Origin: a virus | Lineage: Duplodnaviria; Heunggongvirae; Uroviricota; Caudoviricetes | Length of the DNA: 11,336 nucleotides | Direction: 5' to 3' (one strand) | IMG/VR virus record: IMGVR_UViG_2541047121_000017 | In this document: positions 7,219 through 11,336 of the stretch, piece by piece | How positions within the stretch are numbered: position 1 is the stretch's first letter | Layout of the letters: every line of letters starts with the position of its first letter | Translations under genes and position numbers: made by a program | Notes under the pieces: model-generated | Seen by the model: only the letters and a program-made list of their open reading frames with translations | Databases searched by the model: none | Told to the model about the DNA's origin: nothing

Positions 7219-7712
7219 TAAGCCCCCACGTAATTCCCTGACAGATACCACTCTTCACCCGATACAGCGCGCTTGCTGCTTTTCCGTAAGCACCGCTCAC
7301 GACGCGCCAGAAAATTGTTTCGTTCTGGCTGGGAGTGGCTTTCACGGAATGCCGCCATCCACACCGTTGCAGCACGACGGTATAAGCCCCTGGACTCCAG
7401 TTCTTCAGCCTGGCGGGTCAGGCACAAAATCACCCGGGGATCGTTAGTGCCGACATAGAAATTGCGCACAGGTCTGGTTTCACGAACTGGTTGTGGTTCC
7501 GGCTCCTGCGCTCTCTCAGTCAGGCGCGGGAAATGTCTGCGTGTATCCCCTTCACAACGGTGAGCCACACGCCCACTCTGACGTAACTTGCTTGCAGACT
7601 GCAGAACGCGCTGCCGTGAGTAACCTGCAAAAGCATCCGCAATGTCTCCGGAAGTACAGCCCGGATGGGCTTCAATGAATTTCTGAACGTCATTCAAAAG
7701 ACTCATGCTCAC
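7218..7712 (-). CDS. Hypothetical protein with C-terminal PerC-like motif (possible PerC/Pch-family transcriptional activator), 164 aa
   Basis: C-terminal AEELESRGLYRRAATVWMAAF resembles the conserved PerC-family signature as I remember it; the N-terminal ~60 aa looks winged-helix-like. ATGA overlap with the initiator stop supports a real gene. Functional call is tentative. Confidence 0.5.
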   Translation of the reverse strand: MSMSLLNDVQKFIEAHPGCTSGDIADAFAGYSRQRVLQSASKLRQSGRVAHRCEGDTRRHFPRLTERAQEPEPQPVRETRPVRNFYVGTNDPRVILCLTRQAEELESRGLYRRAATVWMAAFRESHSQPERNNFLARRERCLRKSSKRAVSGEEWYLSGNYVGA

Positions 7713-8650
7713 CCCCTGAATCCTGCCGGGATCTGGCTGTAGTCCACGTTGTCGTAACTGGCTTTGAAGTACGGGTCCTCGCGTTTTTCGGTGTACGTGC
7801 TGACGGACGGCGATAAGCGCAGGGAAAGCTCATCCCATTTTTCCCGCAGCTTCGACGGGCTGAGCACGTTACGGCACCAGAACGGATCGCGACTGACGCG
7901 GCTGTACATCTCGCAGATTTGTTTATGAGTACGACCATCCTGCACACACATCAGGCGAATTTCGTTTGCCCAGGCTGTCCAGTTCGGTTCTTTGGGACGA
8001 ACCACCTCGCCGTCACATTCGGCGGCATGCTCGTACAGGGCGATGATTTTTTTCCAGAGCCACTGTGCACAGGTCAAATCATCCTGCGTCCCCCACTGGC
8101 GCTTTTTAGGGCTGAATACAACCGCATCAGGATGGCGAGTTAAAAAATCCTGTTCATCCGTCTGCGTGTCCGGTTGCGAAGCGTCCGGACGAGAAGGTTT
8201 TTTATCTGACGGATCATGTTTTGATTTTACTGACGGATCCCCGCCAGATTCTGACGGGTGAAAACCCGCTTTTTTGCCAGATTTCGACGCATCAAATTTT
8301 GACGGGTCAGATTTTGATGCGTCAGATTTTGACGGGTCAGAATCTGACAGTTGAGAAAATGCCGCTGCCTGAAGCTTCGCAACGTTAAGCTGATAAACAT
8401 TCGACGCATTGCGGTTACCCTGGCGACGCGCCTTACGCGTTAACCAGCCTTCTGCTTCCAGCCGTGCGATAGCCGTTCTGACGGTGCTCATCCCCGCGCC
8501 AATCTGGCGGGCAATGGTTTCAATTGATGGCCAGCACACACCTTCGTCATTACTGAAATCAGCCAGGCGGGCCATAATTGCCACGCTGGATAACTTCATG
8601 CCTGACGCAGCGCAACCATCCCATACATAGCCGGTTAATTTAGTGCTCAT
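7709..8650 (-). CDS. Replication initiator (lambda O-like organisation: N-terminal HTH domain, iteron-encoded repetitive linker, C-terminal domain)
   Basis: 313-aa ORF. N-terminus has an HTH (…SVAIMARLADFSNDEGVCWPSIETIARQIGAGMSTVRTAIARLEAEGWL…). The central region (SDPSKSDASKSDPSKFDASKS) is encoded by tandem DNA repeats. Positioned after the cII-like gene. Confidence 0.7.
   Translation of the reverse strand: MSTKLTGYVWDGCAASGMKLSSVAIMARLADFSNDEGVCWPSIETIARQIGAGMSTVRTAIARLEAEGWLTRKARRQGNRNASNVYQLNVAKLQAAAFSQLSDSDPSKSDASKSDPSKFDASKSGKKAGFHPSESGGDPSVKSKHDPSDKKPSRPDASQPDTQTDEQDFLTRHPDAVVFSPKKRQWGTQDDLTCAQWLWKKIIALYEHAAECDGEVVRPKEPNWTAWANEIRLMCVQDGRTHKQICEMYSRVSRDPFWCRNVLSPSKLREKWDELSLRLSPSVSTYTEKREDPYFKASYDNVDYSQIPAGFRG
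8203..8355. repeat. Iteron-like tandem array (about 15-bp units, consensus near GATTTTGACGGGTCA); candidate phage origin inside the initiator gene
   Basis: At least seven imperfect direct repeats with core TGACGG / GACGGG / GATGCG at roughly 15-bp spacing between 8203 and 8355. This is analogous to ori-lambda inside gene O. Confidence 0.6.
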
Positions 8651-8659
8651 GACCGACCT

Positions 8660-8998
8660 CTATTTCCCTGAATTTACGACGAAACTGTTCGAGCGGGCTG
8701 AAGCACTCATGCTCATAGCCTTCGCGGAGGTAGATAACCCGTTGTGTTTCCGGTTCCCAACGAATGACTCTGACGGGCACTCCGTAGTGATCTTTGAACC
8801 AGCGGTTAACTTGTCGCAAAGGACTGTCTCCTTTTGCCTGTTGAAATCACCCACAGCCCACTCTGCAAAGCTGTGGGTTACAATTTCCCTGTCACCTGGT
8901 ACATTCACTGCATAGCAATACTCCACCTTCGCTTTTCCACCCGGTACAGGAAGTGCAATCAGTTGCGAGCGACGGTAGTGTGTTGTTAAACTGTTCAT
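8660..8998 (-). CDS. Hypothetical protein (112 aa) between the cII-like and initiator genes
   Basis: ORF start overlaps the cII-like stop (ATGA) and ends 9 nt before the initiator ATG, fitting operon packing. The C-terminus is low-complexity ([17 protein letters not shown]) and a 9-bp-stem hairpin lies inside, so coding status is uncertain. Confidence 0.4.
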
Positions 8999-9546
8999 GC
9001 GTTAGTTTCTCCACAGTCACGACACGCCACGGCGCCCGGAGCTGCACACTCGCGGGCGTCATTACTTTCTGAAATGCAAAAAATTTTGTAGACCAGTGCT
9101 GCATGCTCCTGCAGCTTCGAAATTGAGAGGTACAGCTCGTCGTTAATTGCTGTCTTCTCATGCGGTTCCACTACACCGTCTTCAATTGCTGAACGAATCT
9201 GTTTTGAATAACTGCCGATCTGTTCAATGACCTCCAGCAGGCGTTGGTTGATATCGGCGTTGTCCACATCCTCGACATCAGGAAGAGACACAAAGACGCC
9301 ATTTGCAGACTGCGCCACAGCGTCAGCAATGAAGTGAGTTCCACCAGCACGTTGCAAAATCATTGCCCATCCCAGCGGGAAAATCTGATCGCCATCGGCA
9401 CGAAGGCGGTTAAATAATGCGTTCTCTGTTACATCCAGCCAGTCAGCAGCTTCAGCGTACCCCCCCGGCAACGCTGCGATAGTTTTTCTGACAGCTTTCA
9501 CGTACCACTCAGGCTGTTTTTCTACTTTCCAGTGATGCTTACCCAC
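8995..9546 (-). CDS. CII-like early regulatory protein (CP76/YdaT-like family), 183 aa
   Basis: GTG start at 9544-9546 with a near-perfect Shine-Dalgarno motif (AGGAGGTGA) 5 nt upstream. Sits immediately after the cro-like gene. Family assignment is by synteny and general resemblance, not a verified alignment. Confidence 0.6.
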
Positions 9547-9799
9547 GGTTCACCTCCTGTTCCTGTGGTTTAAACCCATTCTGGTTTTGGCTAGATTGAA
9601 AACGTGCCGGATAAAGAATCTGCATTTCGCTGACTTCACCCTTAAAAAAATTGGCTAAACGTTCTGCAAGCTCGATAGATGGAATCTGCTCCAGCCTCTC
9701 AATACGACTCAACGTCGCTGGATTGACTTGAACACCCGCAGCAACATGCTGCAAAGTGAAACCATGCGCCTTACGCACATTTCGTAATGGTGATTGCAT
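9539..9799 (-). CDS. cro: Cro-like HTH (XRE-family) regulator, 86 aa
   Basis: HTH signature (RKAHGFTLQHVAAGVQVNPATLSRIERLEQIPS…). Transcribed divergently from the cI-like gene, with a GGAGG Shine-Dalgarno motif 4 nt upstream of the ATG. Confidence 0.75.
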   Translation of the reverse strand: MQSPLRNVRKAHGFTLQHVAAGVQVNPATLSRIERLEQIPSIELAERLANFFKGEVSEMQILYPARFQSSQNQNGFKPQEQEVNRG

Positions 9800-9896
9800 A
9801 CGCCCTCCAAATATTGCGCGTTATGCATGTTATTTCACGCAATTATTTTGCGCAAGTTGATTTGCTTATCACGCAATAAAGAAATGTAATAAACGC
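9800..9896. promoter_or_regulatory. Immunity-region intergenic segment with divergent promoters (pR-like and pRM-like) and operator-like TTGC/GCAA inverted repeats
   Basis: 97-bp AT-rich spacer between divergent cro-like and cI-like genes. Contains TTGCttatcacGCAA (9862-9876), the palindrome TTGCGCAA (9848-9855) and CGCAAttattTTGCG (9838-9852). A candidate pRM (-35 TTGCTT 9862-9867, -10 TGTAAT 9885-9890) would start transcription at or near the cI ATG. Confidence 0.5.
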
Positions 9897-10589
9897 ATGA
9901 ACATAGGAAACCGAGTCAGACAACTTCGCCAAGCGAAGAACATGAAAATCGCCGATCTCGCTGAAGCGATAGGAGTAGATGCGGCGAACATCTCGCGCTT
10001 AGAAACGGGTAAGCAAAAACAATTTACCGAACAAACACTGAGTAATATTGCCAAGAGCTTAGGTGTTGATATTGCTGATCTCTTTACCTCTGCCCACAAA
10101 AGTAATACTGTATATAAAAACAGTAATAATGAGGATGTTGCGCAGGTGAAGGATGTGTTCCGTATTGAAATGCTGGATATCAGTGCCAGTGCGGGAAATG
10201 GCCTTATCCAGGGCGGTGATGTCATTGATGTGATTCATGCCATCGAATACAGAACTGATAATGCTGTATCAATGTTCGGCGGACGACCAGCCAATCACAT
10301 CAAAGTTATCAACGTTCGTGGGGACAGTATGTGTCCAACCATTGAGCCAGGAGATCTCATCTTCGTTGATGTCAGCATCAATCAGTTTGATGGTGATGGT
10401 ATATATGTCTTTGGTTTTGATGACAAAACATACGTTAAAAGACTTCAAATGATTCCTGACAAACTGCTGGTGATTTCTGATAACCAGATTTACCGTGAAT
10501 GGGGAATTACTAGCGAAAACGAACACCGATTCATGGTCTTTGGAAAGGTCTTAATCAGTCAGTCGCAAACCCTTAAGAGACATAATTAA
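9897..10589 (+). CDS. cI: CI-like repressor (N-terminal XRE HTH plus C-terminal S24 LexA-like autopeptidase domain), 230 aa
   Basis: N-terminal HTH (RVRQLRQAKNMKIADLAEAIGVDAANISRLETGK) and C-terminal S24 signature with the catalytic Ser in GDSM (RGDSMCPTIEPGDLIFVD) and Lys in YVKRL. Divergent from the cro-like gene. Confidence 0.9.
   Translation: MNIGNRVRQLRQAKNMKIADLAEAIGVDAANISRLETGKQKQFTEQTLSNIAKSLGVDIADLFTSAHKSNTVYKNSNNEDVAQVKDVFRIEMLDISASAGNGLIQGGDVIDVIHAIEYRTDNAVSMFGGRPANHIKVINVRGDSMCPTIEPGDLIFVDVSINQFDGDGIYVFGFDDKTYVKRLQMIPDKLLVISDNQIYREWGITSENEHRFMVFGKVLISQSQTLKRHN
10106..10125. promoter_or_regulatory. Near-consensus LexA (SOS) box TACTGTATATAAAAACAGTA inside the cI coding sequence
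   Basis: CTGT-N8-ACAG with TA flanks and an AT-only spacer at 10106-10125; two mismatches to the E. coli consensus TACTGTATATATATACAGTA. It is the only CTGT-N8-ACAG in the window and encodes the cI interdomain linker (…TVYKNSN…). Confidence 0.6.
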
Positions 10590-10608
10590 CCTCAATATCC
10601 CATCCATC

Positions 10609-10632
10609 GGCCACCGAAAGGTGGCTTTTTAT
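10609..10632 (+). terminator. Rho-independent terminator downstream of cI (stem gccacc/ggtggc, GAAA loop, T5 run)
   Basis: Hairpin at 10610-10625 followed by ttttt at 10626-10630, about 20 bp after the cI stop codon. Confidence 0.6.
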
Positions 10633-10643
10633 TACCTATAAAT

Positions 10644-10680
10644 TTGCATATCTCGCAAATACCACTTGCATATCTCGCAA
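10644..10680. promoter_or_regulatory. Two identical 15-bp operator-like sites TTGCATATCTCGCAA, 22 bp centre to centre
   Basis: Exact direct duplication at 10644-10658 and 10666-10680. Each is an interrupted palindrome TTGC-N7-GCAA, the same pattern as a site in the cI/cro intergenic region. Located just after the cI terminator (oL-like position). Confidence 0.45.
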
Positions 10681-10987
10681 TTTAATTTTATCTTTTATTC
10701 CAGACCAACTACAGGATTACAACAAAATCTGGTTGCAACACGGTGCATGTGTCGTAAGCAGTCAGTAAATGTCAAAAACGAACAGGCAGGACGCCCACGA
10801 AGTAGCCGCCTGGGGCATATGAAGTCCAGGATGATTCGTTGAGTCATGTTGTGCCACTAGGCACTCATGTTAAAGCAGGTGTATGAAATGAAAGTCCAGA
10901 TTTTAAACAATAACTGTGAAGTCGTTTGGTCATACGACATAGCCGCCCCTGTAGATCAGAGCGGCGATAGCTGGACCAATGGGAAAC

Positions 10988-11336
10988 TGAACCGCCCCGG
11001 AAATCCTGGAGACTAAACTCCCTGAGAAAGAGGTAAACAGGATGACTAAAAATACTCGTTTTTCCCCCGAGGTCCGTCAACGGGCAGTTCGTATGGTTCT
11101 GGAAAGTCAGGGCGAATATGACTCACAATGGGCGGCAATTTGTTCCATTGCCCCAAAGATTGGCTGTACACCAGAGACTCTGCGTGTGTGGGTTCGTCAG
11201 CATGAGCGGGATACCGGGAGTGGTGATGGTGGACTCACCACCGCTGAACGTCAGCGTCTGAAAGAGCTGGAACGTGAAAATCGTGAACTGCGCCGCAGTA
11301 ACGATATCCTTCGCCAGGCTTCCGCTTATTTTGCGA
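10988..11336 (+). mobile_element. IS3-family insertion sequence (IS629/IS1203-like), left end and 5' part; continues beyond the window
   Basis: Left terminus begins TGAACCGCCCCGG…, followed by the orfA start; both match my recollection of the IS629 left end. The right end is not in the window. Confidence 0.8.
11042..11336 (+). CDS. IS3-family transposase OrfA (HTH plus leucine-zipper N-terminal protein), 3' end outside the window
   Basis: Translation [59 protein letters not shown]…[24 protein letters not shown] is typical of IS3-family OrfA (IS629-like). An AGAGG Shine-Dalgarno-like motif lies upstream. Confidence 0.8.

Follow-up and report, generated by a model that had tools for sequence, protein, structure and literature searches.

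Candidate CI operators on both sides of the repressor gene in an SfII-like lambdoid prophage

We have analyzed a stretch of DNA of 11,336 bp (hereafter, the window) in which an SfII-like lambdoid prophage of Shigella/E. coli has its immunity region. The palindrome TTGC-N7-GCAA is repeated on both sides of the repressor gene cI, and these repeats are very probably the operators at which CI shuts the early promoters flanking its own gene. The switch would then be of the ordinary lambda/HK022 style, with an operator sequence that is newly written down here; no description of the operators of SfII-type immunity was found in the literature searched. SfII has cI and cro, and N, cII, and cIII are absent from it (PMC3851460, the SfIV comparative paper).

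Results

Occurrence of the palindrome around cI

The preliminary description of this DNA had reported three TTGC-N7-GCAA sites, and the motif count bears this out. TTGCNNNNNNNGCAA matches the window exactly three times, at 9862-9876, 10644-10658, and 10666-10680, where 0.47 matches are expected, and three or more matches were reached in none of 200 dinucleotide shuffles. The complete SfII genome (41,475 bp), which is 99.2% identical to the window in this region, carries the motif in the same three places only, all of them in non-coding DNA flanking cI. Its list of sites was nevertheless incomplete, since a fourth site with one mismatch, at 9814-9828, had been overlooked.

The sites are 15-bp partial palindromes with the family consensus TTGCGT-N3-ACGCAA, which is essentially TTGC-N7-GCAA. 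When a position weight matrix (PWM) was trained on about 66 sites from other lineages only, the four window sites ranked first, with 23.0, 19.5, 18.8, and 16.7 bits; the next-best match in the window reached 10.5 bits, and the 95th percentile of the shuffle maximum was 13.6. A repeat and palindrome search found no other repeated or palindromic motif common to the regions between cro and cI (OR) and downstream of cI (OL).

Genes of the immunity region

The genes that frame these sites are as follows.

9539..9799, minus strand: cro-like gene, 86 aa (Pfam HTH_3, E=5e-10; "cro" in the SfII annotation)
9897..10589, plus strand: repressor gene cI, 230 aa; the product has an HTH at its N terminus and an S24 peptidase domain at its C terminus
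10867..10987, plus strand: homologue of SfV orf33 and first in the early-left operon, interrupted after codon 40
10988..11336, plus strand: insertion sequence of the IS3 family, left end; its orfA begins at 11042

CI matches the Pfam families Peptidase_S24 (E=9e-19) and HTH_3 (E=1e-11). In an alignment of 21 homologues, Ala99-Gly100, Ser144 (in GDSM), and Lys181 (in VKRL) are invariant, and by these features CI appears as a typical SOS-cleavable repressor. The residues M1-N2-I3-G4 are invariant as well, which supports the start codon at 9897. Weak matches of CI to the PDB were 1per, the N-terminal domain of the 434 repressor (E=0.008), and the designed variant 1sq8 (E=4e-4). BLASTP gave no alignment between Cro and the N-terminal domain of CI, so shared recognition cannot be argued from homology. 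The recognition helices of the two proteins resemble each other by eye, and, by analogy with other switches, Cro probably binds the same operators.

The translation of 10867-10987 is identical to residues 1-40 of SfV orf33 and then runs into the insertion sequence, which we take to be IS629-like (IS629/IS1203). The operon driven by the early-left promoter is thus broken 290 bp downstream, and because of this interruption the switch of the window may belong to a defective prophage.

Sites and promoters between cro and cI

The divergent cro and cI genes are separated by a gap of 97 bp. The elements of this region, together with one site inside cro, are listed below.

9764..9778: degenerate operator-like site ATGCGCCTTACGCAC inside the 5' end of cro (PWM 8.5 bits, sixth in the window)
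9814..9828: predicted operator OR-a (OR1-like), TTGCGCGTTATGCAT (PWM 16.7 bits), at about -8 to +7 of candidate pR
9827..9832, minus strand: candidate pR -10, TAACAT, 17 bp from the -35 (TAATAT in most relatives)
9828..9842: partial site TGTTATTTCACGCAA in the pR spacer, matching the consensus in its right half (ACGCAA) and poorly in its left half
9848..9857: near-invariant TTGCGCAAGT, containing the candidate pR -35 (TTGCGC, minus strand, 9855-9850) and one operator half-site
9862..9876: predicted operator OR-d (OR3-like), TTGCTTATCACGCAA (PWM 18.8 bits)
9885..9890, plus strand: candidate pRM -10, TGTAAT, with 17 bp to TTGCTT on one side and 6 bp to the cI ATG on the other

We aligned 20 distinct upstream regions without gaps, taken from 21 loci plus the window, whose CI proteins are 40-100% identical. 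The conserved blocks are TTGC-N7-GCAT with the adjacent -10, TTGCGCAAGT, TTGC-N7-GCAA, and TGTAAT followed after 6 nt by ATG, and the remainder drifts, including the centres of the operators. At pR, the block "gCAtatTA" is kept at the -10, and "TTgCGCAAgtt" is kept at the -35 over the whole range of CI identity from 40 to 100%. OR-a reads ATGCATAACGCGCAA on the other strand and has one mismatch to the extended consensus; nearly all relatives keep this TTGC-N7-GCAT form at a distance of 83 bp upstream of the cI ATG. TTGC-N7-GCAA with a variable centre is found 34-36 bp (mostly 35) upstream of the ATG in about 20 of 22 relatives, at the position of OR-d. Many relatives also have an exact TTGC-N7-GCAA at the position of the degenerate site inside cro, and an exact or one-mismatch site lies 133-135 bp upstream of the ATG in L087-L096, L101-L103, and L106.

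The left half of OR-d is the candidate pRM -35 (TTGCTT, 9862-9867). Comparison with relatives upholds the earlier placement of operator-like sites between cI and cro, including the one at the pRM -35. Across the family, TgtAAT is kept and lies 6 nt before the ATG, which leaves no room for a Shine-Dalgarno sequence and implies a leaderless cI mRNA. A promoter geometry giving such a transcript had also been proposed before, and the invariant spacing from the -10 to the ATG agrees with it.

Full additional operators at 9828-9842 and 9848-9862 were considered and rejected, since each has one good half-site, is not conserved as a whole, and is not among the top PWM hits. The partial site at 9828-9842 occurs in some lineages only and is absent from more distant relatives, and a direct repeat, TCACGCAAT, is present at 9835 and 9869. 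We regard the two positions as possible auxiliary half-sites only. Accordingly, OR has two full sites 48 bp apart rather than three adjacent operators with an OR2 that activates pRM, and with no conserved OR2-like site, pRM activation in the style of lambda is not supported.

No promoter in 9500-11000 passed a strict scan for the sigma-70 consensus, and the proposed -35 hexamers match TTGACA in TTG only. The hexamers are weak; they are conserved with a 17-bp spacing and overlap the sites at pR, pRM, and pL.

The putative operator pair downstream of cI

Beyond cI, the following elements were recognized.

10609..10634, plus strand: cI intrinsic terminator, a seven-pair stem and T-run, annotated as a terminator in SfII
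10644..10658: predicted operator OL2 (promoter-distal), TTGCATATCTCGCAA (PWM 23.0 bits, the top match of the window), at about -58 to -44 of pL
10666..10680: predicted operator OL1 (promoter-proximal), TTGCATATCTCGCAA (PWM 19.5 bits)
10689..10694, plus strand: candidate pL -10, TATCTT, 17 bp from TTGCAT

The pair lies directly past the terminator-like hairpin and T-run. The left half of OL1 is the candidate pL -35 (TTGCAT, 10666-10671), and transcription would start at about 10701-10702. Most relatives have the pair past the cI terminator with a spacing of 22-24 bp, and a -10-like hexamer stands at a fixed 17 bp from the proximal TTGC. In these relatives, ATCAACAG comes six nucleotides after the hexamer and is the start context of lambda-type pL promoters with the same leader RNA. 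Terminator, operator pair, -35/-10, and ATCAnCAG-leader RNA follow one another in the same way with lambda-like, HK022-like, SfV-like, and other operator types, which identifies the position as pL/OL. The sequence thus supports OL/pL as the identity of the pair, and the earlier assignment to this position holds in the comparison.

A role of the pair on cI itself, as a roadblock or 3' boundary element or as auxiliary operators aiding OR by looping, instead of on a rightward pL, is quite improbable. It would fit the weakness of the pL hexamers (TTGCAT / TATCTT), which passed no strict promoter scan, and the annotation of mEp460, where minus-strand ORFs follow the sites directly; that annotation, however, is the sole support of those ORFs. 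In the relatives, by contrast, the proximal site is followed by the fixed-distance hexamer and the start of the leader, phages of other immunity types have this leader behind canonical TTGACA/TATAAT-type pL promoters, and downstream in SfII and SfV lie the int/xis-proximal operon genes, on the plus strand. A minus-strand promoter at the pair was also considered and rejected, as it has no conserved -10 and would read into the cI terminator.

The two OL copies are identical 15-mers in the window, 22 bp apart from start to start, as the preliminary description had noted, but this exact duplication is not the conserved feature; the outer tetranucleotides are. The distal site of SfII itself is TTGCATATATCGCAA, many near-identical prophages differ there as well, and the exact identity is peculiar to the lineage of the window. 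The identity of the copies could suggest a recent functionless 22-bp tandem duplication with a coincidental match between cro and cI, and the repeat is recombinogenic, as one relative, L024, has lost one 22-bp unit and keeps a single OL site. Against this, diverged pairs with a spacing of 22-24 bp, in which the outer tetranucleotides alone are conserved, occur in genera from Citrobacter to Pantoea, Proteus, and Rosenbergiella, the motif is found nowhere else in the 41.5 kb of SfII, and the scores of the independent PWM are far above those of shuffles. Conservation largely refutes such a duplication, and we consider it highly improbable.

Among 82 loci with 99-100% identical CI, the outer tetranucleotides are nearly invariant. 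In the same loci, polymorphism in the N7 centre of the distal site and in the spacer between the sites is about six times that of the non-coding DNA around them. In the operators of phage 434, the outer bases are contacted and the centre is not. The polymorphism seen here is what such a contact pattern would predict.

Co-occurrence of the sites with the CI DNA-binding domain

To relate the sites to the repressor, we used 104 loci picked by the leader RNA, a marker independent of the repressor. A TTGC-N7-GCAW pair occurs in 16 of these loci, and in all 16 the CI N-terminal domain is 65-100% identical to that of the window; among the other 88 loci, none has such a domain. In L180 and L196, only the C-terminal domain of CI is shared, and the operators there are of the HK022 type. 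This association is to be expected in part from physical linkage alone. What the comparison shows is the presence, placement, and conservation of the sites and their association with this DNA-binding domain; binding by CI and the relative affinities of the sites are inferred.

If the sites are real, they could still serve another regulator, such as Cro alone, the CP76/YmfL-type cII-like protein whose gene neighbours cro, or a host factor. The genes for Cro and the cII-like protein are linked to the same region, so that co-occurrence does not fully separate them from CI, and other CI sites in the intergenic region are excluded by the repeat search only. On the other hand, each of the three proposed early and maintenance promoters, pRM included, has a site where binding would repress it, as with the CI/Cro operators of lambda, 434, P22, and HK022, and no second motif is shared by OR and OL. 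The operator type follows the N-terminal domain of CI even where the C-terminal domain is common with HK022-type phages, and under a host factor, the confinement of the sites to a single immunity type, in phages that share their hosts, would be left without explanation. Accordingly, we give a regulator other than CI a small chance.

A leader RNA in the predicted pL transcript

The pL transcript would contain one further conserved element.

10778..10839, plus strand: conserved structured leader RNA, 62 nt, with three helices and an invariant 28-nt core

In the alignment of this leader, 97.5% of cells are paired, and 52 cells changed on both sides, compared with 12 in shuffles. Folding of 10700-10930 as a whole was not significant (z = -1.4); support is confined to the 62-nt element and comes from covariation. 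Rfam gave no match to the leader or the operators (window at E<=1; 10690-10990 at E<=10), with chance matches elsewhere only. The leader RNA is widespread and strongly covarying, and it stands at the 5' end of early-left transcripts in phages without N.

A demonstrable homology with the put RNA of HK022 was rejected, as the covariance model matched neither putL nor putR at E<=10. A local alignment of the leader with put has 11 nt in common, with the short motifs CGAAC..GGC and CAGGAUGA, and L213 has a distinct putL-like sequence after the leader. Among prophage sRNAs, the Pas sRNAs, which are located in late regions, and lambda PreS/LPR1, for which the literature gave no link to the pL leader of the window, were set aside as irrelevant. 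We consider the leader a candidate new cis-acting element of transcription or RNA processing.

Discussion

Proposed switch

In a lysogen, CI dimers on OR-a and on OL1 and OL2 would block pR and pL. OR-a would cover the -10/+1 region of pR, from which cro, the CP76-type cII-like gene, and the replication genes would be read on the minus strand, and OL1 would provide the -35 of the rightward early-left promoter pL. OR-d would form the -35 of pRM and cover half of its spacer. CI on OR-d, or Cro after induction, would lower pRM, and cI would thereby be negatively autoregulated. Transcription from pRM would begin with the A of the cI ATG or right beside it, so that the message would be leaderless. 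With a centre-to-centre distance of 22 bp (22-24 bp in relatives), the OL pair would be placed for pairwise cooperative binding, and cooperativity of CI there is plausible by analogy with HK022 CI. OR lies about 0.8 kb from OL, a distance at which an OL-OR loop formed by CI as in lambda and HK022 is likewise plausible.

These elements could be taken further into a "2+2" switch without OR2, in which cooperative occupancy of OR would be achieved solely through the OL pair and the 0.8-kb loop and cI would be purely negatively autoregulated. The OR operators, 48 bp or about 4.6 turns apart and on opposite faces, would give each other no direct help; one would block pR, the other would sit on the pRM -35, and pRM would not be activated by CI. 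The polymorphism of the OL2 centre and spacer in the presence of identical CI could then tune the loop or the induction threshold. We regard this stricter form of the switch as rather unlikely.

Comparison with known phages

The closest characterized homologue of the window's repressor is HK022 CI, with 42.4% identity over 91% of the query (residues 19-228, tblastn). The likeness sits in the C-terminal part, and the N-terminal domains could not be aligned by tblastn. For the HK022 immunity region, we relied on the record X16093 of Oberto et al. and on Carlson & Little 1993 as far as it is given in PMC8053113. With the operators and promoters of the window as predicted here, both systems have 15-bp operators made of two 5-bp half-sites around a 5-bp centre, an OL pair just past the 3' end of cI (24 bp from centre to centre in HK022), an OL-OR distance of 0.7-0.8 kb, OR1 between the pR -10 and the cro ribosome-binding site, a cI message that is leaderless or nearly so, and an extra operator downstream of pR, which lies inside cro in the relatives of the window phage. 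HK022 CI binds cooperatively and loops OL to OR over about 700 bp in vivo (PMC8053113). The operator sequences, in contrast, are unrelated (TGAAC-N5-GTTCA in HK022 and TTGCG-N5-CGCAA here), indicating a different immunity specificity. In HK022, OR2 lies within the spacer of pR and OR3 overlaps the start codon of cI, whereas the cI-proximal operator of the window lies over the pRM -35 and there is no conserved middle operator. Moreover, OL1 of HK022 is in the pL spacer and that of the window over the -35, and HK022 pL reads straight into putL, whereas pL of the window would read into a different leader RNA.

With lambda, the window shares the divergent cI and cro genes and, in its predicted features, operators overlapping pR and pRM, an OL/pL region downstream of cI that is transcribed in the direction of cI, a cleavable CI with an S24 domain, a leaderless pRM cI mRNA, and adjacent operators about 2.1-2.3 helical turns apart. 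Lambda, however, has three 17-bp operators per side, with OR2 centred at -42 and activating pRM, whereas two full operators per side were recognized in the window, and an activating site could not be demonstrated. Without rexAB genes, OL lies 0.8 kb from OR instead of the 2.3 kb of lambda, and, unlike in lambda, N is also absent (PMC3851460). The 434 operators (ACAA-N6-TTGT) resemble those of the window in that four outer base pairs per half-site are conserved and the centre is variable, presumably uncontacted; they differ in length (14 bp instead of 15 bp) and sequence, and the similarity of the proteins is marginal.

Significance

The biology is a variation on the lambda/HK022 theme and opens no new question, and the leader RNA obtained as a by-product may be of more interest than the operators. 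The comparison provides, for one immunity type, a predicted operator specificity, TTGCGT-N3-ACGCAA, together with its promoter layout. Serotype-converting prophages of Shigella flexneri (SfII), several Stx2-converting phages, mEp460-like coliphages, and relatives across the Enterobacterales commonly have this immunity type. Groups of superinfection immunity would thus become predictable from sequence, and work on the induction of Stx-encoding or O-antigen-modifying prophages would have concrete targets.

Gene organization of the immunity region

Over 9500-10990, the window shares 99.2% identity with the Shigella phage SfII immunity region and ~90% with mEp460, several Stx2-converting phages, and related coliphages. 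Its ORFs agree in order and orientation with the SfII record, where a cII-like gene, cro, cI, and a terminator are annotated.

Genes and elements (the three genes by ORF, domain match, and SfII annotation)
8995-9546, - strand: CP76/YmfL-type 'cII'
9539-9799, - strand: cro
9897-10589, + strand: cI
10609-10634, + strand: terminator-like hairpin and T-run, just 5' of the OL pair
from 10988, + strand: IS3-family element (orfA from 11042), interrupting the homologue of SfV orf33

CI has HTH_3 and Peptidase_S24 domains, and with Ala99-Gly100, Ser144, and Lys181 invariant in 21 homologues it is, judged by its sequence, a standard SOS-type repressor. Its recognition-helix region, VDAANISRLETGKQKQF, is almost invariant among homologues that are 68-100% identical, and the N-terminus MNIG is invariant in the homologue alignment. 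The first gene 3' of pL, the orf33 homologue, starts at 10867 and ends after codon 40 at the IS, probably an IS629/IS1203-like one; this truncation disrupts the prophage's early-left operon.

Elsewhere in the window, a long, near-perfect hairpin (8275-8349, - strand) lies within an O-protein-like replication gene (7709-8650). Given the GACG/CGTC-type motifs repeated in it, this inverted repeat may be iteron-like or origin-like. Its Rfam match to the microRNA precursor mir-5880 is a chance one (30.7 bits; gathering score, 97).

Probable operator sites flanking cI

TTGC-N7-GCAA occurs three times in the window, at 9862, 10644, and 10666, exactly where the preliminary description had placed it, against an expected 0.47; none of 200 shuffles of the window reached three. 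The two sites past the cI terminator are, as described, identical 15-mers 22 bp apart. When the search was extended to the complete SfII genome (41.5 kb), the motif was found at these three cI-flanking places only, and therefore the clustering is not an effect of the window. The proposed set was incomplete: with the motif refined from the three sites, TTGCWTAWCNCGCAA, a mismatch search added 9814-9828, a single mismatch away, as the fourth site. It had been missed because it ends in GCAT. The next-best matches have three mismatches.

Candidate operators and promoter elements
9814-9828, unstranded: OR-a, ~-8 to +7 of candidate pR
9832-9827, - strand: candidate pR -10, TAACAT (TAATAT or TAACAT in relatives); inferred start near 9820
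9855-9850, - strand: candidate pR -35, TTGCGC, conserved, 17 bp from the -10
9862-9876, unstranded: OR-d, -35 to -21 of candidate pRM
9862-9867, + strand: candidate pRM -35, TTGCTT, left half of OR-d
9885-9890, + strand: candidate pRM -10, TGTAAT; the A of the cI ATG (9897) is the seventh base after it
10644-10658, unstranded: OL2, ~-58 to -44 of candidate pL
10666-10680, unstranded: OL1, ~-36 to -22 of candidate pL
10666-10671, + strand: candidate pL -35, TTGCAT, left half of OL1
10689-10694, + strand: candidate pL -10, TATCTT, 17 bp from the -35; inferred start near 10701

A symmetrised PWM, trained solely on lineages with CI 40-74% identical and with SfII-type sequences excluded (consensus ATTTGCGTAATACGCAAAT), ranked the same four sites at the top of the window (23.0, 19.5, 18.8, and 16.7 bits). 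The scores below them were 10.5 and 8.5 bits, and the maximum over shuffled windows was 8.1 bits at the median and 13.6 bits at the 95th percentile. The 8.5-bit match is a degenerate site, ATGCGCCTTACGCAC, at 9764-9778 in the 5' end of cro. Many relatives carry an exact TTGC-N7-GCAA inside the cro 5' end, 133-135 bp upstream of the cI ATG, which recalls the extra operator downstream of OR in HK022 (PMC8053113). Alignment, repeat search, and PWM revealed no conserved third OR site; 9828-9842 and 9848-9862 hold one good half-site each. We found no description of operators of this immunity type in the literature, and none are annotated in the SfII GenBank record.

In the 82 loci whose CI is 99-100% identical, outer tetranucleotides and flanks are nearly invariant, whereas the mean minor-allele frequency is 0.11 in the N7 centre of OL2 and 0.09 in the 7-bp inter-site spacer, against 0.002-0.018 in neighbouring segments. 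This centre and spacer, both within 10648-10665, are ~six times more polymorphic than neighbouring non-coding DNA, with >15 haplotypes (window against L003-L082). In one locus, L024, a 22-bp repeat unit is missing. Operators of phage 434 likewise have conserved outer bases and a free centre. The pattern speaks for contacts between protein and the TTGC and GCAA bases, and against a duplication without function. As to why the OL2 centre and spacer vary so much, relaxed constraint, gene conversion between prophages, and selection on affinity are all possible.

Association with the repressor could be assessed in 104 loci picked by a leader RNA common to many immunity types, a selection independent of the repressor. 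At least two TTGC-N7-GCA(A/T) sites lie within 200 nt upstream of the leader in 16 of them, and all 16 encode, just upstream, a CI N-terminal domain 65-100% identical to that of the window; the remaining 88 have neither the site pair (0/88) nor such a domain (0/88). In L180 and L196, two loci that share only the CI C-terminal domain (54% and 44%), the operators are HK022-type. At the sequence level, this shows that operator type follows the CI DNA-binding domain, with an association inflated by physical linkage.

Candidate promoter geometry at OR

The comparison drew on 80 viral contigs with 99-100% identical CI and on 24 further loci, each from a different species, in which CI identity ranges from 30% to 100% (Citrobacter, Kluyvera, Klebsiella, Pantoea, Mixta, Rosenbergiella, Proteus, Serratia, and others). 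In a gapless alignment of 20 distinct upstream regions (21 loci and the window), anchored at the cI ATG, four blocks are conserved: TTGCgt..T..gCAT followed directly by atTA, the candidate pR -10; the almost invariant TTGCGCAAgtt, containing the candidate pR -35; TTTGC-N6-cGCAAa, which lies 35 bp 5' of the cI ATG; and TgtAAT, 6 nt, ATG. Operator centres and the remaining sequence drift. A strict consensus scan found no promoters in the immunity region, and the candidate -35 hexamers agree with consensus in TTG only.

The position of OR-a at pR would be repressing, like that of HK022 OR1. The site noted earlier over the candidate pRM -35, OR-d, is the conserved one 35 bp from the cI ATG; it has the same register as OL1 at pL, and considering this, OR-d should repress pRM. 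The two full operators are 48 bp apart, and in nearly all relatives their distances from the ATG (35 and 83 bp) are constant. With no conserved third site, this arrangement lends no support to an OR2-type activating site, and on present evidence cI looks negatively autoregulated. The suggestion of a leaderless cI message gains support from the invariant 6-nt gap between -10 and ATG, which leaves no room for a Shine-Dalgarno sequence, and from the invariant MNIG.

The downstream pair and candidate pL

3' of the cI terminator, most relatives carry a pair of sites at 22-24 bp spacing, and the TTGC of the proximal site sits 17 bp from a -10-like hexamer (for example TATCTT, TATCGT, TAATGT, or TATTGT). 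Across immunity types in the leader-RNA sample, one order recurs: cI terminator, operator pair, -35/-10, ATCA(A/G)CAG, and leader RNA. The operators are lambda-like (TATCAC../..GGCGGTG), HK022-like (TGAAC/TGTAC), SfV-like (TGTACC..GGTACA), or of several other types, and near-consensus TTGACA/TATAAT-type hexamers are frequent among these loci. TTGC-type relatives such as L088, L093, L120, and L126 have ATCAACAG 6 nt past the -10, the start context of the lambda-like promoters in this sample and a match to the lambda pL start, ATCAGCAGG. This shared layout and start context bear out the earlier assignment: the downstream pair occupies the OL/pL position, and candidate pL would be directed away from cI (+ strand).

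About 80 nt (10700-10775) separate the leader RNA from the candidate pL start. This stretch, which begins with CCAGACCAAC, is confined to the lineages of SfII and mEp460; HK022 putL begins with AUAGACGAAC. A hairpin CCAGA...UCUGG in this segment is preserved in mEp460 via a G-U change. The fold of the whole pL 5' region was not significant.

Leader RNA of the candidate pL transcript

10778-10839, + strand: structured leader RNA, 62 nt, ACGAACAGGCAGGACGCCCACGAAGUAGCCGCC-hairpin-GGAUGAUUCGU

At least 120 viral contigs, spanning many immunity types, carry the invariant 28-nt core of this leader, CAGGCAGGAnGCCCACGAAGUAGCCGCC, at the 5' end of the early-left transcript (loci include L088, L092, L093, and L110-L228). 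The core is also present in phages such as SfV, SfIV, ST64B, ZF40, mEp237, and phiNP, where it is nowhere annotated. It starts ~8 nt past the inferred pL start in most phages and ~80 nt in the SfII lineage. In an alignment of 37 variants, three helices have 97.5% of cells paired; pairing drops to 20-42% with slid partners, and 52 cells are altered on both sides against 12 in shuffles. The leader has no Rfam match. No relation to HK022 put was detectable, as a covariance model of the leader found neither putL nor putR; in one locus (L213), the leader is followed by a separate putL-like sequence.

A common variant, present in L084 and numerous IMG/VR loci, has the hairpin AAGCGCCCUACAGGACGCUU directly 3' of the leader, followed by GCUCUUUAACA; the window has a different hairpin there (10843-10870). 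Since GCUCUUUAACA resembles the rrn-type boxA, UGCUCUUUAACAA, the two may form a boxB-boxA style nut-like site in phages without N. For the leader itself, a candidate cis-acting role in early antitermination or in transcript or RNA processing is an attractive hypothesis because the leader-carrying SfII, SfV, and SfIV lack N. In these three phages cI and cro are present, and cII and cIII are missing as well (PMC3851460).

Comparison with HK022

Among characterised homologues, the CI of HK022 is the closest (42% identity); its binding to adjacent operators is cooperative, and in vivo it loops OL to OR over ~700 bp (PMC8053113). The OL spacing is 24 bp in HK022 against 22 bp in the window and 22-24 bp in relatives, and the lambda spacing is also matched; the OL-OR distance in the window is ~0.8 kb. 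By analogy, the CI of the window may bind the OL pair cooperatively and may loop OL to OR. The HK022 cI ATG lies inside OR3, a few bases past a TAATAT -10, resembling the proposed leaderless cI of the window. Cro may use the same sites as CI; BLASTP gave no alignment between Cro and the CI N-terminal domain, although inspection by eye shows a resemblance between the putative recognition helices (DAANISRLE and NPATLSRIE).

In summary, our analysis supports four sites, rather than three, as the operators of this CI, and supports the view that this lambdoid immunity region is HK022-like, with an operator specificity that had not been described before.
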